From the NCBI RefSeq assembly GCF_000619845.1, contig NZ_KK211037.1:322979-354978 (forward strand): a stretch of DNA of 32,000 nucleotides. The letters are read 5' to 3'. This DNA comes from Alkanindiges illinoisensis DSM 15370. GTDB taxonomy: Bacteria > Pseudomonadota > Gammaproteobacteria > Pseudomonadales > Moraxellaceae. Made by a program: the position numbers and the translations under genes. The notes beneath the pieces are model-generated. The model was given only the letters and a program-made list of their open reading frames with translations. It did no database searches and was not told where the DNA came from. This document shows positions 7,122 through 31,999 of this stretch, piece after piece; within the stretch, counting starts at the first letter, position 1; the number at the start of each line of letters is the position of its first letter.

Positions 7122-7374
7122 GATGATTTCCTTAAAACAAGGTCAGCCTGGTATGCATCGAGGGCATGTTAAGGCTTTAAAGAAATAATTAAGGTTTGTC
7201 GTTTAAATGGGACAAATGGCGCTGCCATGCAAGAAAAACCATCTTGCAAAGCTGGGCTTCTCATCGCAAAACTCGATTTATAACAGCTATAAGTTAATAG
7301 GGGAATCATGAGCAGTTCTCTTATTAAATTATTGAAGTCCTATCCCGAAACTACAACGCTGCCTTTGGCTTGCA

Positions 7375-7509
7375 CAGCAGCGTGGCTTGCGCTCGGGTAA
7401 ATGAAGAACACTGTTCTGCAAGACGAAGTGGTTTCACTTATCCTCTTACTTCTGGCATAGCCTTCGGTGTTGCGCTCGGGTTGAGTAATACTCAACTTAT
7501 CCTCGCTCA
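7375..7509. repeat. Structured dispersed-repeat copy filling the 3' part of the ubiE-ubiJ spacer
   Basis: The module [ttgcgctcggg ... acttatcctc] occurs twice, at 7387-7445 and 7470-7504. There are palindromes AGAACAcTGTTCT (7405-7417) and GTTGAGTAaTACTCAAC (7480-7496). The 46 nt at 7386-7431 align without gaps to recB 27986-28031 at 34/46 identities (my hand count), including the shared 14-mer gcaagacgaagtgg (7418-7431 and 28018-28031). Confidence 0.7.
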
Positions 7510-8442
7510 TTACTTAAAGCCGCGATGCAGCGCCACAATACCACCAGTCATGTTGTGATAATCACAGCTCTGGAAGCCTGCATTTTCCATCATTTGCTTT
7601 AAGGTGCGCTGGTCAGGGTGCATGCGGATAGATTCGGCCAGATAGCGATAGCTTTCAGAGTCATTGGCTACCAGCTTGCCCATCACGGGCAAGGCAGTAA
7701 AGGAATACAGGTCATACAGGCGTGATAACGGCTCAAATACCGGCTTGGAAAATTCAAGCACCAGCAGGCGACCACCCGGCTTGAGCACCCGGTACATGGC
7801 ACGCAGGGCAGCGTCCTTGTCGGTGACATTGCGCAGGCCAAAACTGATGGTCACCAGATCAAAGCTTTCATCGGCAAAGGGTTCGAGGGTTTCAGCATTG
7901 GCCAGTACAAAATCCACATTGGTACAGCCTTTGTCAATCAGGCGGTCACGGCCTACATTGAGCATGGATTCATTGATATCAGACAACACCACGTGACCCT
8001 GTGGTCCTACTTCGCGGCTAAAGGCCAGCGCCAGATCGCCCGTACCACCTGCAATATCCAGCACCTGCTGGCCACGCCGTACGCCGGACAGATTAATGGC
8101 AAAGCGCTTCCACAAGCGGTGAATCCCGAATGACATCAAATCATTCATCAGGTCATATTTGGCTGCCACTGAATGAAAGACTTCTGCCACTTTTTGCTGT
8201 TTCTCTTCCACATCCACGGTCTTGTAGCCAAAATGGGTGGTTGATCCCAGATTGCGGTGGTCAGCACCCTTAGGCAGACTTTGTTGCTGGCCCTGTGGAG
8301 TGCCTTGCGGTAAGGGCTGGCTTAAAAAGGGAGAGTTGGCATTGGCGGCATTATTGCTGTCTTGCGCAGGTGTATTTTGTGGGGAAGGATTGTTATTGGG
8401 ATTATTAAGGTTATTATGGGTGCTATTGTTGCTGTCAGACAT
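7510..8442 (-). CDS. ubiE: Demethylmenaquinone / 2-methoxy-6-polyprenyl-1,4-benzoquinol methyltransferase UbiE with an Asn/Gln/Pro-rich N-terminal extension
   Basis: 310 aa. The core from THFGYKTV onward ([25 protein letters not shown] motif [11 protein letters not shown], ...IVALHRGFK) is typical UbiE/MenG. The first ~65 residues are low complexity ([27 protein letters not shown]...). Confidence 0.93.
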
Positions 8443-15447: not shown

Positions 15448-16746
15448 ATGAACACAGCCATTGAGCAATCCATTAATAATTCAGCCCAGTCTTCCGTAGA
15501 GTTGTCAGCGCAACCGCACGCTGCTTCCCGTGCCTATAACGTAATTCAAACTGAAAAAACCGTTCCGGTAAAAATGTGGACGCAGGGTGTGAACGTGGAT
15601 GAAAAGTCCAAGGATCAATTGCTGAAAACTGCACAAATGCCGTTTATTTATAAATGGATGGCGGTGATGCCGGATGTGCATGTGGGGATTGGTGCCACCA
15701 TTGGTAGTGTGATTCCAACCAAGGGCGCCATTATTCCAGCAGCGGTGGGCGTGGATATTGGTTGCGGAATGATGGCAGTGAAAACCAGCCTGACTGCGTC
15801 CGATTTGCCAGATAACCTGCATGCGCTACGGACAGAACTGGAGCGTTTGATCCCGCACGGGATGAGTCCAAAAAATCGCGGCCGTGACCGGGGATCATGG
15901 GAAAATGCACCAGACCGGATGGATCAGGTTTGGGCTGAGCTGGCGGCGGATTTTGAGCTGATTTGTGCCAAGCATCCGCGCCTGAAAAATACTAACAACC
16001 GCAAGCATCTGGGAACGCTGGGAACCGGCAACCACTTTGTGGAAGTGTGCCTGGATGAATATCAGGGCGTGTGGATTATGCTGCACTCCGGTTCGCGCGG
16101 TGTGGGAAATGCCATTGGGACGCATTTTATTGAGCTGGCGCGTAAAGACATGCAAAAGCATTTTATTAACCTGCCCGATAAAGACCTTGCGTATCTGGTT
16201 GAAGGCACCGAGCATTTTGATGATTACTGGTTTGCGGTGGGCTGGACGCAGCGTTTTGCCCTGAAAAACCGTGAACTAATGATGGAATCTGCCATTAAAG
16301 CACTGGCCACCATTATTCCAAAACCGTTTAATGCCAAGGTGGAAGCAGTGAATTGTCACCATAATTATGTGGACCGCGAAACTCACTATGGTGAAGAAGT
16401 GCTGGTGACCCGTAAGGGCGCGGTGCGTGCGCGATTGGGTGAATACGGGATTATTCCGGGTTCGATGGGTGCCAAGTCATTTATTGTGCGTGGTCTTGGT
16501 AATCAGGAATCGTTTTGTTCCTGCTCGCATGGCGCTGGCCGACTGATGAGCCGTACCGAAGCCAAAAAACGCTTTACCGTGCAGGATCAAGTTGCGCAAA
16601 CTGAAGGCGTGGAGTGCCGGAAGGACACAGCGGTGATTGATGAAATTCCATCGGCCTATAAACCAATTGAAGATGTGATGAAGGCACAAAGGGATCTGGT
16701 AGAGGTGGTCTATACCTTGCGGCAGGTGGTGTGTGTGAAGGGATGA
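15448..16746 (+). CDS. rtcB: RNA 3'-phosphate ligase RtcB
   Basis: 432 aa carrying RtcB metal-binding and active-site signatures: MPDVHVGIGATIGSV, DIGCGM, GTLGTGNHFVE, HSGSRGVGN, NCHHNY, SCSHGAGR. Confidence 0.95.
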   Translation: MNTAIEQSINNSAQSSVELSAQPHAASRAYNVIQTEKTVPVKMWTQGVNVDEKSKDQLLKTAQMPFIYKWMAVMPDVHVGIGATIGSVIPTKGAIIPAAVGVDIGCGMMAVKTSLTASDLPDNLHALRTELERLIPHGMSPKNRGRDRGSWENAPDRMDQVWAELAADFELICAKHPRLKNTNNRKHLGTLGTGNHFVEVCLDEYQGVWIMLHSGSRGVGNAIGTHFIELARKDMQKHFINLPDKDLAYLVEGTEHFDDYWFAVGWTQRFALKNRELMMESAIKALATIIPKPFNAKVEAVNCHHNYVDRETHYGEEVLVTRKGAVRARLGEYGIIPGSMGAKSFIVRGLGNQESFCSCSHGAGRLMSRTEAKKRFTVQDQVAQTEGVECRKDTAVIDEIPSAYKPIEDVMKAQRDLVEVVYTLRQVVCVKG

Positions 16747-16749
16747 TGG

Positions 16750-16916
16750 TTCGACAAGCTCACCAACCGTGGTTCGACACTTCCTCTAAGGCTGTCGAAA
16801 GTTGGTTTCTGAGTTTGCCAAAGGACACTAACTATCCAAGGATGCTAGCCGGTTCCCTGAGCTTGCCGAAGGGCAGTGCCCGGTTTGTGTTGATCCGGTG
16901 CCTGAGCTTGTCGAAG
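16750..16916. repeat. Array of a ~15-nt motif (TTCGACAAGCTCAGC and its complement CTGAGCTTGTCGAAG) starting 4 nt after the rtcB stop
   Basis: A forward copy sits at 16750-16762. A ttcgaca/tgtcgaa hairpin pair lies at about 16773-16798. Complement-orientation copies are at 16809-16823 (degenerate), 16857-16871 and 16902-16916, spaced 48 and 45 bp apart. Their translation produces the spurious SLSLPKG / LSLSKAE peptide seen in track ORF 16731-16925. Confidence 0.8.
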
Positions 16917-17270
16917 GCCGAATAACACACTATTGTTTAACTTACTAATAAAAATGCCGAATGCAATCCATGAACGCTTATATGTACATACTGAGATGTG
17001 CTGATGATAGTTATTATGTAGGCAGTACCACAAATCTGGAAGCTCGCCTTTATCAGCATCAAATGGGTGAAGGGTCAAATCATACCAAGAAGCATTTACC
17101 AGTAACCTTGGTGTACTGTGAGGAATTTGAGCGGATTGATGGAGCGTTTGCACGAGAGAAGCAGGTGCAAAAGTGGCGACGGCAAAAGAAGGAAGCACTT
17201 ATCAATCATGAGTTTGAGAAGTTGCCAGAGCTTTCAATGTCAAGGTCGTCTAGGGCTTCGACAAGCTCAG
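16902..17270. mobile_element. Putative GIY-YIG cassette bounded by a perfect 15-bp inverted repeat
   Basis: CTGAGCTTGTCGAAG (16902-16916) and CTTCGACAAGCTCAG (17256-17270) are exact reverse complements. They bracket the conserved part of the GIY-YIG ORF. More copies of the same motif lie outside both ends. Mobility itself is an inference. Confidence 0.5.
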
Positions 17271-17290
17271 CCACCGAGTACGGGGTGTAG
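16961..17290 (+). CDS. GIY-YIG nuclease family protein (small stand-alone UPF0213/YhbQ-like type)
   Basis: The sequence YMYILRCADDSYYVGSTTNLEARLYQHQ...VYCEEFERIDGAFAREKQVQKWRRQKKEALI carries the GIY-YIG core (YIL..YVG, R, E, KxW.R.KK). The likely true start is ATG 16970 (MNAYMYIL). The last ~17 codons (..SRASTSSATEYGV) are read out of the flanking repeat motif. Confidence 0.8.
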   Translation: MQSMNAYMYILRCADDSYYVGSTTNLEARLYQHQMGEGSNHTKKHLPVTLVYCEEFERIDGAFAREKQVQKWRRQKKEALINHEFEKLPELSMSRSSRASTSSATEYGV

Positions 17291-17444
17291 TCCGATTGGT
17301 TTAGACGAGTTCAGCCATCGGTTCCGCATGCTCAACTCCTGAATCAACACAAGTTTAAGCACTGCCTTTCAATGGTTGGTGCCTTTCGACAGGCTTACGG
17401 GACGTGTCGAACTACAAGCTCAGCCAGCGTCTAACAAGCTTAGC
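17256..17444. repeat. Second array of the TTCGACAAGCTCAGC motif, downstream of the GIY-YIG ORF
   Basis: One perfect copy lies at 17256-17270. Degenerate copies are tttagacgagttcagcc (~17299-17315), tttcgacaggcttac (~17386-17400), gtcgaactacaagctcagcc (~17406-17425) and acaagcttagc (~17434-17444). Confidence 0.7.
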
Positions 17445-17476: not shown

Positions 17477-17930
17477 ATGAAACTCGCAGAAGCCTTATTA
17501 CTGCGTAGCGACCAGCAAAAAAAGCTGGCATCAATGAAACAGCGTATCAACGCCAACGTGCTGGTACAGGAAGGCGATACGCCATCGGAAGACCCGAATG
17601 AACTGATGCAACAGGTCTTTGCCTTAACCCATGAAACCCAGGGGCTGATTTTGCAGATTCACCGCACCAATGCGCAGGCAAAACTGGGCGATGGACGCCT
17701 GCTGCTAGAGCTTTTAATGCAGCGTGATGAACTGGCAGAGCGGCATAAAATTATCACCGGGGCCATTGCCAGTACGCACCGTGAGCCGGATCGCTATAGC
17801 GCGCGAAATCAAATGGCAAAAAGTGATACCCGTCGCTAGCCTGCAAAAACAGGCTGATGATATTAGCGCCAAATTGCGAGATTTGAATATTACAATTCAG
17901 GCTGCTAACTGGCAGATTGATGTGGTTTAA
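17477..17930 (+). pseudogene. DIP1984-family (septicolysin-like) helical protein gene, interrupted by a frameshift
   Basis: Two overlapping track ORFs (17462-17839 and 17724-17930) join into one ~150-aa protein: MKLAEALLLRSDQQKKLASMKQRI...REPDRYSAR|EIKWQKVIPVASLQKQADDISAKLRDLNITIQAANWQIDVV. This matches the DIP1984 family pattern as I recall it. The frame changes inside the alternating run agcgcgcg at 17798-17805. GAGGA Shine-Dalgarno 8 nt before the ATG at 17477. A sequencing error cannot be excluded. Confidence 0.65.
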
Positions 17931-17981
17931 CTAACCACGTAAAGAATTTTGCGCATTGCAATTGTGGTGGGCAATACCGTT

Positions 17982-18177
17982 TAGAACATACTGAGCGAGT
18001 GCAAGACCCCCGTAATTCCCGTCTGAGGGGTTGAACAAATATCAGAGGGCTATGGCGCGCGGTGAGCTCGTGCACAACTTTGCATATGGCAAGCTCAGCA
18101 CCTTGCACGATTCAAGCCTTTGCCTAACCCGCAAAGTCACTTGTAACCCAGCACTACCATGCACTGACAGTATGTTC
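17982..18177. mobile_element. 196-bp MITE-like element with terminal inverted repeats, 45 bp upstream of rtcA
   Basis: There is an 11-bp perfect TIR: AGAACATACTG at 17982-17992 and CAGTATGTTCT at 18167-18177. It extends imperfectly to ~20 bp (..agcgagtgca vs ..tcagtgca). The element has internal hairpins (ACCCC..GGGGT, CTTTGCctaacccGCAAAG) and no credible ORF. It shares motifs with the ubi-spacer and recB repeats (agaaca, tgcaagac, ctttgc-ytaa-yc..gcaaag). Confidence 0.6.
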
Positions 18178-18222
18178 TTTTATTTAAACTTAATGATAAA
18201 ACAAATTAATTAGAGAAAAGCA

Positions 18223-23056: not shown

Positions 23057-26000
23057 ATGCTTAACATTACCCAAAGTCAGCGTATTGATCTGCTGTTTGC
23101 AGCCATGCAGGACTTTTTTGCCGCGCATCCGGTGGGAGTGCTGGAGGCACAGCAGGTGATTGTGCCGTCGCACGGGGTAGGGGTGTGGCTGCGTTATCAA
23201 CTGGCTAGCCAGCAGGGTATTAGCGCGCGCCTAAATACCGACTTTTTTGGGACATACCAGTGGACCCTGTATCGGCGTGTGCTGGGCAATCATATTCCGC
23301 GCAGTGCACCCTTTGCACGGCAGGTCATTCAATGGAAGCTGTTTGCCTATTTTCTGGCAGTGCTCAAGCAGCCTGAGCAATATGAACAGGCACAGCAGGT
23401 ACTGAAGCCGCTATTTGAACGGCTGCAACATCATTCAGCCAATCCTGCCAAAAACCAGCAGCGCCTACTATGGAAAATGGCCGAACACATTGCACAGGTA
23501 TTTGCCAATTATGTGCTGTATCGGCCCGAATGGCTGGTGCGCTGGGGCAAAGGCCAGTTACTGGATATGATTCCGGTGATTCAGCACATGGATGCCAAGA
23601 CCCCGGAATGGCTGCTGCAACGCTACAGCGACATGGAGCTGTGGCAGCAGTTTTTATGGCAAACCCTGTTTAGTGAAGACTTTGAAAAGCACCAGAATAT
23701 CCGGCGCAATTTCTGGCAGATACTGGAGACAAACCCGGCCAAGCGCAAGGTGCTGCCCAAAAGCCTGACCGTGTTTACCGTGCTGCAATTGCCGCCGTCC
23801 GAATTTACTTTTCTTAAGGAACTGGCACGCTATATTGATATCCAGTTTTTGCATTACAACCCCTCGCAGGAATACTGGGCGGATAGCGTTGATCCGCTGT
23901 GGCTCAAGCAGTTTGAACTCAAAAACCCCAAGGCTGCCGCCCTGTTTGACAGCCGTCATCCGTTACTGACCCGCATGGGCAAGCAGGCGCGCGATATTTT
24001 TGCCCTGCTGGCTGAACTATCGGGCAATGATGTGAGCCATCAGGGTGAATGGCTGGATCTGTTTCCGGCTTATTTTCCCAATACCCTGCTGGGACAAATC
24101 CAGCATGACGTGCTGCATCTGGTGCAACCACAAAAGCATGGTTTTAAATTGCAGGCGCAGGATGATTCCATTCAGGTGCATGCCTGCCATTCGCCATTGC
24201 GCCAGCTGGAAGTGCTGCGTGAACAACTGATGGGCTGGCTAAGTGCCGATAAGACCCGCAAGCCTGCTGATATTGTGGTGTTTGTGCCCAACCTGAATGA
24301 GATTGCGCCGCTGGTGCGCACGGTGTTTTCAGCGCAAAGCGGCATGTTTTTACCCGTGCATATTACTGGCGTGGCGCAGGCTGATGCCGAACAGTTATGG
24401 CAAGCCATGACCGGACGTTATTATTTGCTGGATGGCCGTTTTAGTGTTGAGGATTTGCTGGACTGGCTGGGTCTGGAAGCGGTACAGGAGTTGTATGCCT
24501 TAAACCGTGAAGACGTACAACGCCTGGGTGAGCTATTGGCAGATGCGGGTTTCCGTCGTGGTTTTGATGGCGCGCACTTGCGTGAAACGCTGGCTGATGG
24601 CGACCATGACACCCGCTTTACCCTGGAGTTTGCCTTAAACCGCCTGATGCTGGGCATTGCCATGCCAGTGCAGGCTGTTCATGCCGGTGTGCTGGCCTAC
24701 GAGGGTGTTGGGCGGCAGGATTTTGAACTGCTGGCCAAGTTATCCCGGATTTATCAGGATTTGGACGTCCGGCGTCACTGGCTGAAAACCCACAATAAAT
24801 CACAGCATCAAAGTCTACAGGACTGGCTTAGCTTGCTGCGTGAAGAACTCAGCAGTGACTTTGACCATACCACAGGCACAATTGGCGGCAAGGGCGTAGC
24901 CTGTGCGCTGGATGAATTGCAGCACAGTCTGGATTTAACCCAAAGCTCGCAGTTGAACCTGCCATTCCGTTTTGTACTGGATGAGGTGGGGCAAATTCTG
25001 GAACAGGCGCCACCCGGTTCGGTGCCAACCGGAAAAATTACCTTTAGCCGTCTGGGCACATTGCGTCCGCTACCGTATAAGCTAGTGGTCATGCTTAATC
25101 TGGACAGTGGCCTGTTTCCCGCACGCGACACTAAAAACACCTTTGATTTGATGAGCGTGATGCCTGCACAGCGCGGTGACCGTTCGCGCCTGATTGATGA
25201 ACAGGGCGCTTTTCTGGATGGCCTGTTGCTGGCACAGGAGGCCTGCTGGATGTTTTACAATGGCTTTGATGTCAGCGATACCCAGCCACGCCAGCCGTCC
25301 GGCACCTTGCAGGAACTGATTGAGTTTATCCGCGACATGCTGGAAACACCGGACATGCTGTATGCACACATCGTGCATTACCATACGCTGGAACCATTTG
25401 AGCTAATGAATTTTCAGGCGCAAACAAGCAACACGCAATCCAGCAATCCAGATTCTACGATAGTCCTTGGCAAAAACCAGTTAAGTCATGGCAAGCCGCG
25501 CAGCTATCACGGCACATGGTCGACGGTAGCTGCCAACCTGCAACAGCAGTTCCCGGTGGTTAAGTGGCTGGACCAGGACTTGATTCATGAGGCGCAGGGA
25601 CTACTGTCGCTAGAGCGTATTATTCGCCAGTTGTGCCGTCCAGCCAGCCATTTTTTAAGCCAGAGCCGCGTACAGCAAATTGCCCGGCAAGACTTGCCCG
25701 CCATTTTTGAACCCTTAAGCCTGAACAAGCTGGATGAATATCATATTCGCGCGTTACATCAGCAGCAGCCGGATCAACTGGCGCAGGGTCATTTGCAGGC
25801 CATTTTGCCGGTAGGAAGTGCGGCCATGGCCTACTGGAAAAAAAGTCAGGCCGAGGCTGCGCGCAACCGCCAGCGCTTGCGCCGTTATGGCGAGCAGGAA
25901 ACAGCACTCACCGAACGGGTATTAATGCTTGAACCATGGCAATTGCGGGTACAGGTGCCAGCGGATGAACAGTGTCAGCTCTGGTTAAGCCAATATCCCT

Positions 26001-26500
26001 ATAAACAAAAAGGCCAGCGCCAGTTGCGTTACTGGCTGGAGCATCTGGCCTGGCATATCCAGCGCAACACACAAGCAACTGATGTACAGCAGGACATTGG
26101 CCAGCGGGTGATTGTGCTCAGTGATAGCACGCTGATTTATCAACCTGTCACCGCTATTGTCGCTAGTGCGCAGTTGCTCAAATGGCTGGACGTGTGGCAA
26201 CAGGCCAGTTGTGCGCCGTGGGTGTTGCCACCCAATCTGGTGCTGCATGCATCCGGTGTGCATTATGATGCAGAACAGCAACAGGCCAGTATTAAAAATC
26301 TGGATAGCCTGTGCAAGACATGGCTGGACGGTAATAGTTTCTGGCCCGTGCAGGAGCAGGAAGATTGCGCCCAGCACCGTGACTGGCAACTGATTTTACG
26401 CGGGCAGGATGCAGGGCAGCTATTTGCTGACTTTATGCAGCAGCATGCGATTGTGCTGTATCAGCCGATTAAACAGTTCAGTCAGGTGCTTAATCAATGA
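23057..26500 (+). CDS. recC: Exodeoxyribonuclease V gamma subunit RecC
   Basis: 1147 aa, a length typical of RecC. The N-terminus and internal blocks match the RecC pattern (VIVPSHGVGVWLRYQLA, VFTVLQLPPSEFTFLKELA, SFSRLGTLRPLPYKLVVMLNLDSGLFP). It lies immediately upstream of recB-recD. Confidence 0.9.
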   Translation: MLNITQSQRIDLLFAAMQDFFAAHPVGVLEAQQVIVPSHGVGVWLRYQLASQQGISARLNTDFFGTYQWTLYRRVLGNHIPRSAPFARQVIQWKLFAYFLAVLKQPEQYEQAQQVLKPLFERLQHHSANPAKNQQRLLWKMAEHIAQVFANYVLYRPEWLVRWGKGQLLDMIPVIQHMDAKTPEWLLQRYSDMELWQQFLWQTLFSEDFEKHQNIRRNFWQILETNPAKRKVLPKSLTVFTVLQLPPSEFTFLKELARYIDIQFLHYNPSQEYWADSVDPLWLKQFELKNPKAAALFDSRHPLLTRMGKQARDIFALLAELSGNDVSHQGEWLDLFPAYFPNTLLGQIQHDVLHLVQPQKHGFKLQAQDDSIQVHACHSPLRQLEVLREQLMGWLSADKTRKPADIVVFVPNLNEIAPLVRTVFSAQSGMFLPVHITGVAQADAEQLWQAMTGRYYLLDGRFSVEDLLDWLGLEAVQELYALNREDVQRLGELLADAGFRRGFDGAHLRETLADGDHDTRFTLEFALNRLMLGIAMPVQAVHAGVLAYEGVGRQDFELLAKLSRIYQDLDVRRHWLKTHNKSQHQSLQDWLSLLREELSSDFDHTTGTIGGKGVACALDELQHSLDLTQSSQLNLPFRFVLDEVGQILEQAPPGSVPTGKITFSRLGTLRPLPYKLVVMLNLDSGLFPARDTKNTFDLMSVMPAQRGDRSRLIDEQGAFLDGLLLAQEACWMFYNGFDVSDTQPRQPSGTLQELIEFIRDMLETPDMLYAHIVHYHTLEPFELMNFQAQTSNTQSSNPDSTIVLGKNQLSHGKPRSYHGTWSTVAANLQQQFPVVKWLDQDLIHEAQGLLSLERIIRQLCRPASHFLSQSRVQQIARQDLPAIFEPLSLNKLDEYHIRALHQQQPDQLAQGHLQAILPVGSAAMAYWKKSQAEAARNRQRLRRYGEQETALTERVLMLEPWQLRVQVPADEQCQLWLSQYPYKQKGQRQLRYWLEHLAWHIQRNTQATDVQQDIGQRVIVLSDSTLIYQPVTAIVASAQLLKWLDVWQQASCAPWVLPPNLVLHASGVHYDAEQQQASIKNLDSLCKTWLDGNSFWPVQEQEDCAQHRDWQLILRGQDAGQLFADFMQQHAIVLYQPIKQFSQVLNQ

Positions 26501-26554: not shown

Positions 26555-29500
26555 ATGAATAGTCAGGTTCAGCCACAGGCGATCATTCCGCCAACCCCGG
26601 CCATTGACCTTGGTCTCAACGGGATTCACCTGATTGAAGCCTCGGCAGGCACTGGCAAAACCTGGACACTCTCCACCCTGATGGTGCGCTTTATTGTGGA
26701 AGGCGAATACCTGACCCGCCAGATTATTGCCACCACGTTTACCCGTGCTGCTGCTGCCGAGCTAAAACTGCGCATCCGCAAGCGTTTTGAGGATTTTCGC
26801 AGCCTGTTTCACCGCGCCATTGAACACCATGCTGAAGTATTACAACACATGCAGGCTGAGCAGGACTGGCTGGCCGTGTATTTGCTGCAAAAGCTGGATA
26901 TCGAGCAGCTCAACCATGCCAGCAACCGCCTGCAACTGGCACTGGACAGTTTTGATGAACTGTTTGTGGGCACGCTGGACAGTTTTTGCCAGAAGCTGCT
27001 GAATGAATTTGCCTTTGATAGCGGCCAGCATGAAATCCTGCAAATTAGTGAACAGGAAGCCGAGGCCTGCTATCAGGTGATGCACGATGCCTTGCGTCAA
27101 TGGCGTAGCCGTCAGCCTGCGTGCATCATTGAATTATTGGTACTCACCGACCAGCTCAAAGACGTCGAAGACTATCGCGGTAGCATGACCACGGTGCTGA
27201 ATTTTTTATCCGCACAATTGCAGCCGATTGACATGCCAGTGATTGACTGGCAATTATTTGAGCAGACCCAGCAGCAATTAAAGCAATGTGACTGGTCAAC
27301 ATTGGCTGCATTTTTACAGCCGGATGGGGAACACCACAGCAAGCTGGTGAAGAACCGCGCCTTTAGCAATAATGCGCAGGTATTTCCGGCAATCGTAGCG
27401 GCATTGCAGGACAACCTGCTGGATTATTTGTGTCAGCTTAATGCAGACAGTGCTGAGTATCGCTGGCTGGAAGGATTTGCCAAGATTGAAGGCCAGTTTA
27501 AAAAGGCTGATGAAGCCCTTAAGCAGCATTTTATTAATCTGCCTGCCTGTCAGGTGCTGATGCAGGTTCAGCATTGTATGCTGCATTTGCACGACAGTCT
27601 GGAGCAAATTTCCCAGCACACGCATTATTTTGTCAGTCAAATGGTGCGCCAGCAACTGCCGCAAATTTTAAGCGAGCGTGGTGAAACCACCTTTTCCCAG
27701 CAAATGCGTGTACTGGCCGATGTGCTGCAACAGGATGCCAGCCAAAGTCTGGCGCAGCATATCCAGCACCGTTATCCGGTGGCACTGGTGGATGAGTTTC
27801 AGGACACCAATTTTGATCAGGATCGCGTGATTGCATATATCTGGCGGCAGCCGGTGCAATCTATCAATCAGCCTTCTAAATCTCCTGTAGTGCTTGAACA
27901 AGATTCTGGCCTTCTTGCAGCGCAGAACGCCTCAGAACATGGCAGTGCTTTGCTTAATCCTCGCCTGCTCGAGCAAAGCTCTCGCCTTGCGCGCGGACAG
28001 ATGAGAAGCAAAGCTTCGCAAGACGAAGTGGCCCTGTTTAATCCGCGCTCATGCCTCGTGCTAGTCGGTGATCCCAAACAAGCCATTTATGGTTTTCGCG
28101 GCGGGGACATGCTCACCTATCAGCGCGCCAAAATGCAGGTCATGCAGCATGGCGGGCAGCAGCATTTTTTACGCTTTAACCATCGTTCCATTGCGCCATT
28201 GGTGTCAGCGGTAGATCGCCTGTTTCAGTTTAATCCCGAGTTTGGCGAGCAGGTACAATATCAGCCCGTCGAAGCCGGTGGCCGCAATAGCACTGAGCTG
28301 CGTGATGGCAATGACATCAATCATGTGCCCTTGCGCCTATTGTGTATTGAAGACCAAAAAACCGAGTTTGAACAGGTGGCGTGGCAAATCATTCATTTGC
28401 TGCAAGCAAGCCATAGCGGACAAGTACAAATTAAGCACCATGACCAGTTTGAGCCCATCAGCCCCAGCCATATTGCCGTGTTATGCCGTTCCAACAGTCA
28501 ACTGGATAAGGTTCAGGCCGTGTTACAACAGGCCAAAGTGCCGGTATGGCGTGGTTCACGCTTAAGTATTTTCCAGACCACGCTGGCCGAAGACATTGTC
28601 GCGCTCATGCAAGTGATGCTGGCACCGTACCATGAAGGCCGTTTGCGGCGTGCGCTGGCGGGCAGCCTGATTGGCAAAACCTTAAAGGCACTGGTGCAAC
28701 TCGACCAGCAACCCGATGAACTGGCACGCTTGCAGGGTCTGTTTTTTAGTCTGGGTGAACGCTGGTACAGGGCCGGATTTTTGGCAGCATGGCAGCAGCT
28801 GAGTGAAGCCTTTGACATCTGGCCGCAATTGTCACGGCAGCCCAATGCCGAACGGCTGGTGGTGAATTTGCGCCATTTGATTGAAGTGATTCACCAGCAA
28901 AGCGAAAAAATTCAGGGCCAGCATCACTTGCTGGCGTGGCTGATGCGCCAAATGAGCCAGCCGGGTCAGCGCGAGTGGGAGCTGGAGCGCAGGCTGTCCG
29001 GCGAGCAGGGCGTGCAGCTGATGACCATTCACAAATCCAAGGGCCTTGAGTTTCCCATTGTGTTTGTGGCGGGGCTTGATCCCGCGAAAGGTGGACAAAA
29101 ATCCAATATTATTTTTTATGAAGAAAACCAGCAACGCATGCTGTCGTTTTCCAACCGTAATGCTGCCCAGCTGGAAGCTCATCAGCAACGTGAACAGGCC
29201 GAATTACGCCGCCTGATTTATGTGGCTCTCACGCGTGCCAGCATGCGCCTATATGTGATTGCGCCACCTGCACCGGGCAAGGATGGTAAAATAAAGGATG
29301 GTAAAATAAAGGATGGTAAAATAAAGGATGGTAAAATAAAGGATGGTAAAATCAGGGGCGCACTGTATCACTGGCTACCTGCCGCACGTGAGGGCTGGAG
29401 CGGCCCCAATACCTTGGTACAGGACGGACTGACTGAATGTCCGCAGTTTATTTATAAACAGCTGAGCAGCCATGTGGATATTGATGCACGGCCAGTGCCC

Positions 29501-30598
29501 AGCCATCGGGTATATGCGTGGGGTCTCACCAGTTTTAGCCAGTTGTCACGCCATCAAAAAATGCTGCCCATCGTGGTGGAGCAACCGGAGCATCAAGCCT
29601 TAAATGACATTGCTGCTACTCCTGCGGATGACATTTTGCTGCATACCGATGAGCCATTAACTGACCTACAAAAGGTACAAAAAACCAGTCAGCGCGCTAG
29701 CATGTCCACAGGAAAAATAGCTCTGCAAGCTGATGAAGGCCTAGTGCTTTCTTCAAATCTTTTAGAATCAAAGGAGCTTGAAGCAGGACGTCTTGAACCA
29801 AAAGAACCTAAGACAGAAGCGACACTAGTAGCAGATCCAGAAACTAGTGAACCCACACTGCCATTGTGTTTTAGCTTTCCACGCGGTGCCAATGCAGGGG
29901 ATTGCCTGCATCATATTCTGGAGCAGCTCAATCCCGGACATCAGGAATATTGGCCGCAGGTGTTTGAAAAACAGTTGCAGAACTTTGCCATTAATGCCCA
30001 ACTGGAACGCTATGGGCAGCCTGTGGTTGACCTTGAGCACATGGCAGGCTGGTTTAACGATATCTTGCAGGCTCAATTGCCAGAAGGTGCCACGCTGGCC
30101 AGTCTGGACAGCCAGATTCATGAGTTTGAGTTTCACCTGTCGGTTGCTGACAAAATGGTGGATACCCAAGCCATTGGGCAGTTACTGGCCCAGCATCAAG
30201 TACCGGTAGCGCCGCTCAATAGCGTGATGAATGCACGTTACCTGCATGGTTTTATTGATCTGGTATATGTGCATCAGGACAAATATTATATTGCCGATTA
30301 CAAGAGCAATTATCTGGGCGACCAGTATAGTGATTACCAGCCTGCGGCACTGCGCGACAACATGAGTAATTCCAGCTACTGGCTACAGGCGGCGCTATAC
30401 CAGCTGGCCTTGCATCGGTTCCTTAAGCTGCGTTTGCCAGACTATCAGCCTGCACGGCATCTGGGAGGGTCTGTGTATTTGTATTTGCGTGGCATGCAGC
30501 AGGGTTCTGACCAGAACGGTATCCTGCACTGGCAGGCAAACGAGGACTTGCTTGATCAACTGGATCACTTGCTAGGACAGCATGATCCGTGGCAATAA
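26555..30598 (+). CDS. recB: Exodeoxyribonuclease V beta subunit RecB (SF1 helicase + PD-(D/E)xK nuclease), enlarged by insertions
   Basis: 1347 aa. It has helicase motifs I (EASAGTGKTWT), II (VDEFQDTN), III (LVGDPKQAIYGFRGGD) and V/VI (TIHKSKGLEFP, YVALTRA). The C-terminal nuclease motif is GFIDLVYVHQDKYYIADYKSN. It is about 170 aa longer than E. coli RecB as I recall it (1180 aa). The extra length is concentrated at 27855-28053, 29279-29352 and ~29684-29865. Confidence 0.93.
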   Translation: MNSQVQPQAIIPPTPAIDLGLNGIHLIEASAGTGKTWTLSTLMVRFIVEGEYLTRQIIATTFTRAAAAELKLRIRKRFEDFRSLFHRAIEHHAEVLQHMQAEQDWLAVYLLQKLDIEQLNHASNRLQLALDSFDELFVGTLDSFCQKLLNEFAFDSGQHEILQISEQEAEACYQVMHDALRQWRSRQPACIIELLVLTDQLKDVEDYRGSMTTVLNFLSAQLQPIDMPVIDWQLFEQTQQQLKQCDWSTLAAFLQPDGEHHSKLVKNRAFSNNAQVFPAIVAALQDNLLDYLCQLNADSAEYRWLEGFAKIEGQFKKADEALKQHFINLPACQVLMQVQHCMLHLHDSLEQISQHTHYFVSQMVRQQLPQILSERGETTFSQQMRVLADVLQQDASQSLAQHIQHRYPVALVDEFQDTNFDQDRVIAYIWRQPVQSINQPSKSPVVLEQDSGLLAAQNASEHGSALLNPRLLEQSSRLARGQMRSKASQDEVALFNPRSCLVLVGDPKQAIYGFRGGDMLTYQRAKMQVMQHGGQQHFLRFNHRSIAPLVSAVDRLFQFNPEFGEQVQYQPVEAGGRNSTELRDGNDINHVPLRLLCIEDQKTEFEQVAWQIIHLLQASHSGQVQIKHHDQFEPISPSHIAVLCRSNSQLDKVQAVLQQAKVPVWRGSRLSIFQTTLAEDIVALMQVMLAPYHEGRLRRALAGSLIGKTLKALVQLDQQPDELARLQGLFFSLGERWYRAGFLAAWQQLSEAFDIWPQLSRQPNAERLVVNLRHLIEVIHQQSEKIQGQHHLLAWLMRQMSQPGQREWELERRLSGEQGVQLMTIHKSKGLEFPIVFVAGLDPAKGGQKSNIIFYEENQQRMLSFSNRNAAQLEAHQQREQAELRRLIYVALTRASMRLYVIAPPAPGKDGKIKDGKIKDGKIKDGKIKDGKIRGALYHWLPAAREGWSGPNTLVQDGLTECPQFIYKQLSSHVDIDARPVPSHRVYAWGLTSFSQLSRHQKMLPIVVEQPEHQALNDIAATPADDILLHTDEPLTDLQKVQKTSQRASMSTGKIALQADEGLVLSSNLLESKELEAGRLEPKEPKTEATLVADPETSEPTLPLCFSFPRGANAGDCLHHILEQLNPGHQEYWPQVFEKQLQNFAINAQLERYGQPVVDLEHMAGWFNDILQAQLPEGATLASLDSQIHEFEFHLSVADKMVDTQAIGQLLAQHQVPVAPLNSVMNARYLHGFIDLVYVHQDKYYIADYKSNYLGDQYSDYQPAALRDNMSNSSYWLQAALYQLALHRFLKLRLPDYQPARHLGGSVYLYLRGMQQGSDQNGILHWQANEDLLDQLDHLLGQHDPWQ
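27855..28053. repeat. ~200-bp structured repeat copy embedded in-frame in recB between helicase motifs II and III
   Basis: It encodes ..VQSINQPSKSPVVLEQDSGLLAAQNASEHGSALLNPRLLEQSSRLARGQMRSKASQDEVALFNPRS.., where E. coli RecB (as I recall it) has only ~15 residues. Positions 27986-28031 are 34/46 identical (my hand count) to the intergenic copy at 7386-7431, with a shared 14-mer. The right end tttaatccgcgctcat matches acttatcctcgctcat (7495-7510) at 12/16. It contains the hairpin GCTTTGC..GCAAAGC, like the one in the MITE-like element. Confidence 0.65.
29279..29352. repeat. Perfect 15-bp tandem repeat (GGATGGTAAAATAAA x4 plus a 12-nt partial copy) inside recB
   Basis: Identical units lie at 29281-29295, 29296-29310, 29311-29325 and 29326-29340. 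A partial unit follows at 29341-29352. The repeat is in-frame and encodes GKDGKIKDGKIKDGKIKDGKIKDGKIRG just after helicase motif VI. Confidence 0.95.
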
Positions 30599-30610
30599 CT
30601 AAACAACCTG

Positions 30611-31999
30611 ATGGCAAATGGGCAAACATTAAAAGACTTTTGTCATTTTCTAAGGGCACTAAAACAGGCAGGCAAGGCTGTGGATAACTCTGTTGATAAC
30701 CCTGTGGGTAAGTTTGTGGATAAACCTGTTGATAACCTTGCGGATAAGTCTGTTGATAATATTCAGACAACTGATGAGTCTGTAGAAGACACCTGGTTTG
30801 CTGCTTTGGCAACCCAGTTAACCCGTCTGGATGCTGGGCTTACTGACCTTAAAAAAGATCAATTAAAACAACTTATTCTTAATGTTGGGCAGGCACTGGA
30901 CAATGGCCATACCTGTTTGCTGCTAACGCCAGAGCATCTAAAATCTGTACAGTTACAGCATCCTTTGATTGTGGATGAAAAACAGGCCACAACTCAACCG
31001 GCACCGCTGGTCAGGGCGGAGGATTATCTATACTTTTATCGGCAGTGGCAACAGGAATATCGACTGGCTGAACAATTAACACGCATTTTAACGGCTGTTC
31101 GGCCAGTAACTGTACAATTTGAAGCCGGTGAAACGGCCAATGCACGCCAGCAACAAGCCATTACCCTGGCCGCCAGGCATTCCTTTAGCCTGATTACCGG
31201 TGGGCCGGGCACTGGCAAGACCTATACCTTGGTGAGGATTGTTAAGGCCCTGCAACAGGCCCAGCCGGATTTGCGTATTGCACTGGCAGCTCCCACGGGC
31301 AAGGCCGCACAGCGTATGCAAAGTGTACTGGATATCGCCTTTGCCGAATCCGGCATTCAAAGCAGCCAGATTCAAACCGCCCAGACTGTGCATCGGCTAC
31401 TGGGACTGGGCAGCAGCGGCAAGCCCCGTTATCACCAGCGCGTCCCGTTGCCGTATGACCTGATTGTACTGGACGAAGGCTCCATGCTGGATCTGGCGCT
31501 GGGCAGTTTGCTGTTTGATGCCATTGCACCGGGTACCCGCCTGATTATTCTGGGCGATGCCGACCAGCTGGCTGCGGTGGATGCCGGGGCAGTACTGGCT
31601 GACCTGCAACAAACCCCGGCCTTGCAGGATCACCAGATTCATTTGCTGGAAAGTAAGCGCTTTAATGCCACGCAAGGTATTGGCCAACTGGCATCGGCAA
31701 TTTTGGCGCAGGATATTACGACGTTCTGGCACACCTTTCACAAGCCTGAAAACCAGTCCATTTTAAAACACATTAATCCTGAGCCTTTAAGCGACCAGCA
31801 ACTGTTTGACCAGTTATGGCAGGGTTTTTTACCGTATGTTGACGCGCTAAAAAACGGACAGTCGGTGCAGCAACTGTTTTCGGTATTTGATCAGTACCGC
31901 ATTTTAACAGCCATGCGCTCAGGCCGCCTTGGCGTTAAACGGATCAATCAGGAAATGTCACGTCGGCTGCAACTGGCACTCACCCAGACGGTTGGCTTT
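30611..31999 (+). CDS. recD: Exodeoxyribonuclease V alpha subunit RecD (partial, runs off the right edge)
   Basis: It is absent from the ORF track because it has no in-window stop. My translation from the ATG at 30611 stays open to the window end. It contains SF1 motifs: Walker A (LITGGPGTGKTYT), AAPTGKAAQRM, Walker B (LIVLDEGSMLD) and ILGDADQLAAV. It starts 12 nt after the recB stop. An alternative in-frame TTG at 30806 would remove the repeat-bearing N-terminal extension. Confidence 0.88.
   Translation, partial: MANGQTLKDFCHFLRALKQAGKAVDNSVDNPVGKFVDKPVDNLADKSVDNIQTTDESVEDTWFAALATQLTRLDAGLTDLKKDQLKQLILNVGQALDNGHTCLLLTPEHLKSVQLQHPLIVDEKQATTQPAPLVRAEDYLYFYRQWQQEYRLAEQLTRILTAVRPVTVQFEAGETANARQQQAITLAARHSFSLITGGPGTGKTYTLVRIVKALQQAQPDLRIALAAPTGKAAQRMQSVLDIAFAESGIQSSQIQTAQTVHRLLGLGSSGKPRYHQRVPLPYDLIVLDEGSMLDLALGSLLFDAIAPGTRLIILGDADQLAAVDAGAVLADLQQTPALQDHQIHLLESKRFNATQGIGQLASAILAQDITTFWHTFHKPENQSILKHINPEPLSDQQLFDQLWQGFLPYVDALKNGQSVQQLFSVFDQYRILTAMRSGRLGVKRINQEMSRRLQLALTQTVGF
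30677..30760 (+). repeat. Seven head-to-tail 12-bp repeats (consensus yCTGTkGATAAc), each containing a DnaA-box-like 9-mer
   Basis: The units are gctgtggataac, tctgttgataac, cctgtgggtaag, tttgtggataaa, cctgttgataac, cttgcggataag and tctgttgataat. TGTGGATAA, the exact complement of the TTATCCACA DnaA box, occurs at 30679-30687 and 30715-30723. The other five 9-mers each differ from it at one position. In the recD frame the array encodes (A/S/P/F/L)-V/A-D/G-N/K x7. Confidence 0.85.

Follow-up and report, generated by a model that had tools for sequence, protein, structure and literature searches.

The recB gene of Alkanindiges illinoisensis DSM 15370, which encodes the beta subunit of RecBCD, lies in a stretch of 32,000 nucleotides (nt) from contig NZ_KK211037.1 (positions 322,979 to 354,978 of the forward strand), the whole of which is referred to here as the window. 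Between its helicase motifs II and III the gene carries an extra segment, and this segment very probably arose when a small hairpin repeat of modular build, from an intergenic-type family that is spread through the Moraxellaceae, became inserted in frame. The insert belongs to a family of two-hairpin repeats present in Acinetobacter, Psychrobacter and Alkanindiges and on plasmids of Moraxella. The presence of an intergenic-type repeat in frame in recB between these two motifs had been proposed in a preliminary description of the DNA, and the proposal is upheld by a covariance model, R1, which was built from 50 copies elsewhere in the Moraxellaceae with no recB or window sequence included. When searched against the window and against Alkanindiges loci, R1 matches the window in two places, namely the spacer between ubiE and ubiJ (65.3 bits, E 2e-13) and the recB insert, where the match extends along the entire model (37 bits, E 1.5e-6), both on the forward strand (Table 1). 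It also matches the recB inserts of five relatives, with 72 bits at locus L006, 47 at L001, 35 at L005, 26 at L004 (a partial match) and 20 at L007. The recB insert is thus a member of the family.

That the host gene is a recB of the RecBCD type (SF1A, UvrD-like) is evident from its motifs, its nuclease domain, its recC and recD flanks and its match to E. coli RecB in both sequence and fold. The protein is 100% identical to the Alkanindiges illinoisensis UvrD-helicase/RecB protein, for which PF00580, PF13361 and PF12705 are listed, and none of its UvrD-type helicase motifs is missing, motif II (DEFQD) and motif III (GDPKQAIY) among them; it also has a C-terminal PD-(D/E)XK nuclease domain. The gene order is recC (23057-26500), recB, recD, with recC and recD intact, and the open reading frame (ORF) of recB runs unbroken through 27855-28053, as had been stated, to give an intact product of 1347 residues. 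In a comparison with 64 relatives the interval from VDEFQDT to GDPKQAIY measures 86 residues in the window RecB, against 26 residues in most relatives and 25-42 in the rest, a small closest clade excepted. Within that clade the interval is 90, 73, 84, 85 and 71 residues in five relatives, so that six Alkanindiges-clade sequences have 71-90 residues between the motifs. The outgroup P0008 has 26 residues, as does P0004, a protein 78% identical overall with ~91% identity over its N-terminal half. The orthologue alignment that had been suggested as a check therefore finds most relatives without the segment (26 against 86 residues). Insert-free relatives have only a 7-residue loop at this position, with no unit-like sequence. 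Alignment to E. coli RecB gives a clean break at H403/Q404, where 63 window residues (~433-495) are unmatched. The preliminary estimate of about 80 residues against about 15 in E. coli was right about the excess, which amounts to ~60 residues or 180 nt, but E. coli RecB has ~23 residues between the motifs rather than ~15. Among the Moraxellaceae RecB proteins examined the expanded segment is confined to the Alkanindiges clade, and it is absent from E. coli RecB.

The basic unit of the family is ~60 nt long and comprises a variable hairpin 1, a linker (T)CTTGCGCTCGGG, a covarying hairpin 2 with a 6-3-6 layout and a terminus CTT(A/T)ATCCTCGCTCA, with the units arranged head-to-tail in arrays. 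When the recB DNA of six relatives is compared with the loop laid out by codon, the inserts resolve into arrays of units, whose number and order differ between species. For instance, a 36-nt unit, TCGCTCGGG-CAAAGC-AGT-GCTTTG-CTTAATCCTCGC, encodes SLGQSSALLNPR, a 60-nt variant with a longer nested hairpin encodes SLGQMRSKASQDEVALFNPR, and a linking module has the form CTGCTCGAGCAAAGCTCTCGCCTT; the predicted insert peptides include SALLNPR and ASQDEVALFNPR. In the window, composite unit I is made up of a long linker (27893-27937), a short hairpin CATGGC-AGT-GCTTTG (27938-27952) and a linker CTTAATCCTCGC (27953-27964), and its collinear counterpart in L004 is CTCGAGCAAAGC..GCCTCAGGG-CAGAGCAATGCTCTG-CTTTTTCCTCGT. 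Composite unit II, which is collinear with the family consensus, consists of hairpin 1 with the linker CTGCTCGAGCAAAGCTCTCGCCTTGCGCGCGGA (27965-27997), a long hairpin variant (27998-28036) and a terminal linker TTTAATCCGCGCTCA (28037-28051), directly after which comes the TGC of the conserved Cys500. Its hairpin 1-linker part alone aligns locally with a copy that lies between genes in a different strain of A. illinoisensis (L028) at 29 matches in 34 nt, while the long-hairpin variant is present again in the window's ubiE-ubiJ spacer, and the intergenic array at L028 contains similar long units as judged by eye. Overall, the module order of hairpin 1, CTTGCGCTCGGG, hairpin 2 and CTTAATCCTCGCTCA in recB is collinear with ~67 copies elsewhere. 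A GCTTTGC..GCAAAGC pair had been described as a hairpin of the element; the pair does exist, at 27947-27979, but it joins the arms of two neighbouring modules and is not a hairpin of the family.

What is it, then, that is preserved in these inserts, the encoded peptide or the nucleic acid? The recB stems vary yet stay complementary (CAAAGC/GCTTTG, CAGAGC/GCTCTG, CAGGGC/GCCCTG and CAAGAC/GTCTTA), and across 13 units from five recB genes 88.5% of the stem cells are paired, compared with 24-44% when the partner strand is slid by 1-3 columns. In the same units three of the six stem pairs show compensatory changes on both sides, and these alter the encoded residues (S-A, G-A, D-V), so that the preserved feature is the hairpin and not the peptide. 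The pairing is kept in the recB genes of lineages whose RecB N-terminal regions are only ~70% identical. Since complementarity is maintained by compensation that changes residues, any constraint or turnover would act on the nucleic acid and not on the peptide; the pairing in RecB lineages that are ~30% diverged reflects either selection for the hairpins or a turnover of units that outruns their decay. The same behaviour is seen in the family at large, where an alignment of 50 distinct copies has 93% of the cells in the two hairpins paired against 34-46% when slid, a percentage inflated for hairpin 2, paired forms of which were favoured by the selection filter, while hairpin 1 was unfiltered; nine of the ten pairs change on both sides. 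A hidden Markov model (HMM) made from the 36-nt recB units finds no match outside recB in ~130 kb; such a model is tied too closely to particular stem sequences, and the structure-aware model was used in its place.

The extent of the family was gauged with an exact-pattern scan of one genome per species, in which CGCTCGGG-N15-YTKW-N(0,1)-TCCKCGYTC gave 113 matches. In sixty-eight of these the N15 segment makes a 6-3-6 hairpin with 5 or 6 of its 6 pairs formed; one of the sixty-eight (L102) is apparently a chance match. The remaining ~67 hairpin copies are in records labelled Acinetobacter (many species), Psychrobacter or Alkanindiges, save four in unlabelled or mislabelled contigs of metagenome-assembled genomes that are evidently mis-binned. 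The other 45 matches form no such hairpin, and their scatter among unrelated phyla, most of them GC-rich, is what chance would give. Family copies also share sequence that was no part of the search, in the form of an upstream hairpin 1, such as ACTCGAGCACAGCTCTCG, TCAGGCACAGCCTTCG or GGAAAAATCATAGATTTTTCC, followed by (T)CTTG. A BLAST search with an array from A. lwoffii finds units on plasmids, 25 from Moraxella osloensis and 2 from Psychrobacter, and no match in the phage collection. At gathering thresholds Rfam recognises no family beyond tRNA and the flavin mononucleotide riboswitch in the window and 18 element-bearing loci. At the protein level, a concatenated four-frame peptide has no match at E <= 10 among 5.8 billion proteins, where the motifs are too short to reach significance, and the window's insert peptide has one match among 1.84 billion representative proteins, an unrelated repetitive ORF of 917 residues; with motifs so short and this one match unrelated, such searches are uninformative about other carrier proteins. 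No description of the repeat was found in the searchable literature, where absence is no proof of novelty, and the family appears to be uncatalogued.

The second copy in the window is an intergenic one. The spacer in question separates ubiE (PF01209) from an SCP2/ubiJ-like gene. Over 27986-28031 and 7386-7431 the insert and the spacer are identical at 34 of 46 positions (74%), including the 14-mer GCAAGACGAAGTGG, the same count as had been reached by hand, and a second, inverted match that had previously escaped attention pairs 28000-28023 with 7242-7265 at 21 of 24 positions. The local alignment scores are 34 for the 46-nt match and 33 for the inverted one, while the background obtained by aligning the insert with 300 further segments, taken from both strands of the 32 kb, has a mean of 18.9, a standard deviation of 2.0 and a maximum of 26. 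The resemblance is therefore not due to chance, and the match to 7386-7431 stands clear of the kind of background against which the preliminary description had asked for it to be judged. Both copies, as had also been observed, finish with ..ATCC(T/G)CGCTCAT, a sequence in which the conserved 3' end of the large repeat family can be recognised. The element at 7386-7509 is ordered as a long-hairpin unit, hairpin 1 with its linker, a short hairpin TTGAGTA-A-TACTCAA and CTTATCCTCGCTCAT. ubiE retains its own stop codon and the element begins at the next base; the antisense strand of the copy, in the sense of the ubiE mRNA (7380-7512), has a fold z of -2.5. The whole spacer is far longer than in relatives, including those in which UbiE is 84-88% identical, and R1 has no match in the ubiE-ubiJ loci of 61 relatives (286 kb in total). 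A spacer so enlarged in the window and element-free in relatives indicates that the family does enter new sites.

Structure prediction renders the insert as a disordered loop, 61 residues long, with well-folded helicase elements on either side. An AlphaFold2 model of RecB residues 1-620, based on an alignment of 40 sequences, has a mean predicted local distance difference test (pLDDT) score of 82, and its best structural matches are the RecB chains of RecBCD structures (E 5e-19). Residues 436-496 (27860-28042) have a pLDDT of ~30 (below 50) and no secondary structure, while the flanks are modelled with confidence, as a helix (420-430) after motif II and a strand (500-505) leading into motif III. 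The structural check proposed earlier thus places the insert in a predicted disordered surface loop with the helicase core intact, at a position where loop length already varies among relatives. Even the RecB proteins that carry the insert do not share a conserved peptide there. Through the window's copy a single sense frame is open, and a synthetic consensus array has stops in two of its three sense frames, leaving the same one open. The modules in recB have lengths that are multiples of three (36, 60 and 24 nt) in comparison with 61-62 or 73-74 nt for intergenic units, which would be a case of survivorship, in that only frame-preserving, stop-free arrangements could have persisted in an important gene. 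The recB sense strand of the insert has no sigma-70 promoter and no intrinsic terminator, and the antisense strand has one weak terminator-like hairpin (28028-28014), with totals no higher than in shuffled sequences.

The course of events most consistent with these observations would begin with entry of the element, in sense orientation, into loop-coding DNA between the motif II helix and the motif III strand, at the equivalent of H403/Q404 in E. coli. The insert would be translated as an inert and flexible surface loop, disordered and rich in S, L, Q, N and P, and would be tolerated through the combination of a single open sense frame, module lengths in threes and a loop that leaves the helicase core intact. 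The array would then have gained and lost whole units by slippage, by unequal recombination between the 36-nt repeats, or by conversion from other copies.

Two other features of the same protein are of note. A 15-nt tandem repeat (29279-29357), which follows closely on helicase motif VI (YVALTRA), specifies (KDGKI)x5; in relatives the motif is present once or twice (KDGKTKDGKI, KDGKTKEATI), making it a strain-specific in-frame expansion with no relation to the hairpin repeat. Joining the helicase part to the nuclease part is a linker (residues ~1000-1090, 29560-29830) that is long and acidic or low-complexity (..EPLTDLQKVQKTSQRASMSTGK..EPKEPKTEATLVADPETSEPT), and together with the two insertions it accounts for a RecB that is ~170 residues longer than that of E. 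coli.

Elsewhere, the locations of family copies fall into a few recurrent types. Copies in sense orientation precede tRNA genes, namely tRNA-Val(TAC) in Alkanindiges and Psychrobacter and tRNA-Lys(TTT) in Acinetobacter, and end exactly one base ahead of the 5' end of the tRNA, which suggests an association with tRNA leaders that is old and conserved. A promoter function for the downstream tRNA can be set aside, as the spacing between the TTGCGC and TATCCT hexamers, ~22 nt by eye, is too long. In antisense orientation copies occur at gene 3' ends, where 15 of 29 loci have an overlap of exactly 14 nt between a convergent gene and the CTCGCTCA end. Such genes end in ..(P/H)-E-R-G-stop by way of a TAA inside GAGGATAAG, with the last four codons and the TAA lying within the repeat and with a bias towards this one frame. 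This tail is found in eight different housekeeping genes, including cysG, ruvB (in two Alkanindiges genomes), ribBA, acs, pth, a DUF454 gene and a BLH-phosphatase/oxidoreductase gene, from Acinetobacter and Alkanindiges (loci L010, L080, L088, L112, L092, L029, L054, L028 and L032), and pdxH uses the element's TGA instead. Downstream of cysG in A. lwoffii (L119, 7615-7984) is an array of six head-to-tail units of 61-62 nt. On the mRNA strand of the upstream gene these units present GAGGAUAAG motifs, which are Shine-Dalgarno- or GGA-like, between the hairpins, a layout that, as a matter of speculation, recalls protein-sponge RNAs.

Finally, the family also occurs in transposase genes. In Psychrobacter cibarius a copy lies in frame in an IS630-type DDE_3 transposase between VMD and RFHK, splitting the Pfam domain in two, and in several Psychrobacter species another copy truncates an IS630-type transposase at LPPYSPDLNP. 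On the M. osloensis plasmid pMOSL1 a 60-nt unit is in frame in an IS3-type transposase between SMSRKG and YDNAPIESF. The interrupted insertion sequences are found in several species or plasmids. Thus recB is the only housekeeping enzyme gene found with an internal copy, though not the only coding host.

Table 1 Features of the window, and of other loci (L numbers) where stated, that bear on the recB insert and its repeat family.
Feature	Position	Strand	Basis
recB (RecBCD beta subunit), intact 1347-residue ORF carrying the insert	26555..30598	+	ORF call, homology, structure match
Expanded loop between helicase motifs II and III, codons 433-499, 67 residues against 7 in insert-free relatives, ~180 nt extra	27851..28051	+	Interval lengths, E. 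coli alignment, AlphaFold2
Left part of loop (PVQSINQPSKSPVV), either what is left of the ancestral loop or a portion of the element that has decayed	27851..27892	+	Kept in the two closest insert-bearing relatives; no family-model match
Composite unit I, degenerate	27893..27964	+	Collinear with units of relatives; recB-unit HMM match 27930-27963
Composite unit II	27965..28051	+	R1 match 27956-28053; alignment to L028
46-nt stretch matching the ubiE-ubiJ spacer	27986..28031	+	Pairwise alignment
ubiE-ubiJ spacer, second site filled by repeat DNA	7122..7509	.	388 nt against 5-71 nt in relatives
Core of a long-hairpin unit, opposite orientation, same spacer	7242..7265	-	88% complementary to 28000-28023
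Intergenic family member, antisense to ubiE, abutting the ubiE stop codon	7386..7509	+	R1 match 7438-7511
tRNA-adjoining copies	L024 6140-6214, L025 1478-1551, L046 5688-5958, L052 3461-3533, L113 1129-1201
Copies in transposase genes	L066 2526-3044; L050, L096, L108, L110, L117, L027; L201 1208-1855

Several observations weigh against the interpretation of the segment as a mobile repeat that entered recB. The insert as a whole folds no better than shuffled sequence (z = +0.7), and unit I is degenerate with a weakened stem. Junctions in recB, ubiE, the IS3-type and the IS630-type genes reveal no terminal inverted repeats and no clear target-site duplication, although the ends are approximate and the empty sites diverged, and no associated transposase was identified. 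The copy number is low, with 3-4 exact-pattern matches per Alkanindiges genome, a rough lower bound, and few additional model matches in 8-kb flanks, and the filtering of hairpin 2 noted above has likewise to be borne in mind. Many copies occupy orthologous positions across species, with the tRNA-Val site common to Alkanindiges and Psychrobacter, and with the tRNA-Lys site and, in many species, the 3' end of cysG occupied in Acinetobacter, for which old, vertically inherited and possibly functional elements are as good an explanation as mobile DNA. The distribution within recB is also uneven. A neighbour-joining tree of the N-terminal 541 RecB columns, with the insert left out, has the form ((window,(P0002,P0003)),P0004), sister to (P0007,(P0005,P0006)), with P0008 outside, so that the insert is found in both sub-clades and is absent from the nested P0004 as well as from the outgroup. 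All carriers share the right junction ..CG(C/T)TCA|TG(C/T), followed by conserved Cys-Leu-Val, which favours a single old insertion, and the P0004 loop, AAKEVKNA, is nearer to the outgroup's TPKELKNC than to any carrier's remnant, which favours P0004 never having carried the insert. The history therefore requires either a single gain, followed by allele replacement or by a loss that restored an ancestral-looking loop, or two gains at a site that is preferred, or else recombination that carried the segment across.

An alternative, which is considered unlikely, is that the element is kept in recB for a role at the level of nucleic acid, be it as an RNA or DNA hairpin bound by a host factor, in the tuning of recB translation or mRNA stability, or as a recombination-related cis site. 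Such a role is suggested by pairing that persists in recB at ~70% RecB N-terminal identity through protein-altering compensatory changes, by linkers and an architecture that are conserved in four genera, and by the several orthologous sites (tRNA-Val, tRNA-Lys and the cysG 3' end); the low copy number speaks against a purely selfish, proliferating repeat, and the element terminates ruvB as well in two Alkanindiges genomes. Yet one close relative manages without the insert, the number and order of units vary freely between species, ongoing birth of units by duplication or conversion would preserve hairpins equally well, and there is no match to a binding factor or known RNA family. The window copy, moreover, is partly degenerate, and its weak unit I stem and an overall fold no better than that of shuffles argue against a strong requirement in this strain. 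The broader proposition is that the repeat is an undescribed, host-maintained module of the Moraxellaceae, with covarying hairpins and invariant single-stranded linkers recognised by a conserved factor, and that the recB copy is retained for a cis function. It would fit the abutment on tRNA-Val and tRNA-Lys, the PERG-stop gene ends including that of ruvB, and the antisense GAGGAUAAG arrays between hairpins, and it too is assigned a low probability.

The insert could also, at first sight, be a home-grown coding minisatellite, a 36-nt tandem repeat generated from the codons of the native loop, with its likeness to the spacer coincidental or derived from recB. It is, after all, periodic, with 12-residue units whose number depends on the species, the recB-only HMM has no matches outside recB in the ~130 kb, and the same gene has an unrelated 15-nt tandem expansion. 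This origin is nevertheless very improbable, given that a model from non-recB copies in other genera matches the recB inserts with up to 72 bits, that the module order is collinear with the ~67 copies elsewhere, and that the 7-residue loop of insert-free relatives has nothing resembling a unit in it. More improbable again is an artefact, in the form of a misassembly across the repeat, by which short-read assemblers can be misled, or of a decaying recB pseudogene, when an insert with an open frame occupies this site in six independent assemblies, including the complete chromosome CP171007.1 of Alkanindiges sp. WGS2144, and the gene, with recC and recD intact alongside, has its nuclease domain and every helicase motif. 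That the segment is a RecB domain or loop of ancestral origin, lost in most lineages, is scarcely credible. Two Alkanindiges sub-clades do carry the segment with the same right junction (..CG[CT]TCATG[CT]), but E. coli RecB and the remaining Moraxellaceae RecB proteins examined lack it, its peptide is not conserved among carriers and is predicted to be disordered, and it is built from a DNA repeat that is present at non-coding sites. Conservation across diverse orthologues, which the preliminary description had named as the mark of an ancestral domain, is thus not what is observed, the segment being restricted to the Alkanindiges clade with unit number and order that differ among species. In-frame insertion of an intergenic-type hairpin repeat is the interpretation retained here.

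The window contains further repetitive sequences outside this family. The region upstream of rtcA (17930-18190) contains a CTTTGC..GCAAAG pair, as the preliminary description had it, but the kinship with the recB insert that was drawn from this MITE-like (miniature inverted-repeat transposable element-like) sequence is not supported, the region (~17930-18190) having neither blastn similarity to the insert nor an R1 match. At 16740-17440 a small GIY-YIG-type ORF (16961-17290) is flanked by direct and inverted copies of a GGTTCGACAAGCTCA(G/C)C-type repeat, which is a different family. The N-terminus of RecD (30671-30766) is encoded by a 12-nt periodic repeat (GTGGATAAC / GTTGATAAC / GCGGATAAG ...) specifying (V-D-N/K-x)n, which is kept in Alkanindiges relatives and whose DNA resembles seven or eight DnaA-box-like 9-mers (TGTGGATAA).

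The colonisation of essential enzymes, in frame, by small palindromic repeats is known mainly from Rickettsia. The recB insert is a new example of this phenomenon from outside that genus, with the repeat inside a core enzyme of a free-living gammaproteobacterium, in the helicase core of RecBCD and flanked there by two catalytic motifs. The series of species, with their differing unit numbers and one close relative without the insert, is suited to asking how much disorder a motor protein tolerates, and allows it to be asked whether hairpins in coding regions are under selection. As the family alters the C-termini of housekeeping genes and adjoins tRNA genes, it is also relevant to annotation, in respect of gene ends, spurious ORFs and split transposases, and it may be of relevance to gene regulation in the Moraxellaceae, a family that includes important pathogens.

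Of the repeats described in other bacteria, the repetitive extragenic palindromes (REPs), with the bacterial interspersed mosaic elements (BIMEs) and REPINs associated with RAYT transposases, are short palindromes with a GTAG-type 5' tetranucleotide that occur in hundreds of copies in alternating or inverted arrangement (PMC2817692, PMC3116915). The Moraxellaceae family resembles REPs and BIMEs in having short, imperfect and covarying palindromes that are clustered, typically just past stop codons, and inherited vertically over long periods. The REP hallmark of an extragenic palindrome near stop codons is indeed present, with convergent gene ends inside the element at 15 of 29 loci. It differs from REPs, BIMEs and REPINs in that its arrays are direct, its copies per genome are few and no GTAG is visible in the consensus; in place of more than 100 copies per genome in inverted or alternating pairs there are the few exact matches per Alkanindiges genome given above, a rough lower bound, in head-to-tail order. 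We are not aware of any reported REP that forms an in-frame array inside the core of a helicase. Mycobacterial interspersed repetitive units (MIRUs), in the account cited, are tandem intergenic units of 40-100 nt that vary in copy number, have array ends overlapping stop codons and contain short open frames (PMC3184786). On that account the two have in common tandem units between genes, a number of units that varies between strains or species and ends that overlap a flanking stop codon; they are unrelated in taxon and sequence, and MIRUs are not defined there by covarying hairpins. We know of no MIRU inside the conserved core of an enzyme.

In behaviour the family is also similar to the enterobacterial RU-1, RU-2 and RU-3 repeats (ERIC, YPAL) and to the ORF-fused BOX, RUP and SPRITE repeats of pneumococci (PMC2759123, PMC3184786). 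Those are mostly MITE-like with terminal inverted repeats, none of which are seen here, and their sequences differ. MITEAba12, a MITE that has been reported across the Moraxellaceae, is a small non-autonomous element of Acinetobacter and Moraxella osloensis and to that extent comparable; it measures 113 bp, with 78% A+T, 16-bp terminal inverted repeats (GGCTTTGTTGCACAAA), 9-bp target duplications and stops in all six frames (PMC6382973), and its size, A+T content, terminal repeats and six-frame stop codons rule out identity with the present repeat.

The closest analogue in behaviour, by comparison with published accounts, is to be seen in the Rickettsia palindromic elements (RPEs), which those accounts describe as 100-150 nt in length and formed of one long palindrome, located between genes, in frame in housekeeping genes, and near or in RNA genes (Ogata et al. 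2000, as summarised in PMC3184786 and PMC10969869). Going by these descriptions, the two have in common that a small repeat of non-coding type is found both between genes and in frame in protein genes, with a peptide compatible with the fold, and near RNA genes. Residence in frame in conserved genes in a fold-compatible manner is displayed by the recB insert and the transposase copies alike. The same descriptions set the family apart from RPEs by its different host family and apparently much lower copy number, and by its ~60-nt two-hairpin unit, conserved single-stranded linkers, head-to-tail arrays and the 36-nt sub-units in recB; in place of one long palindrome or stable hairpin, the recB copy has two short hairpins and linkers and a fold z of +0.7. 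The resemblance to RPEs that was pointed out in the preliminary description is therefore one of behaviour, and on these descriptions does not extend to architecture or, it appears, to sequence.

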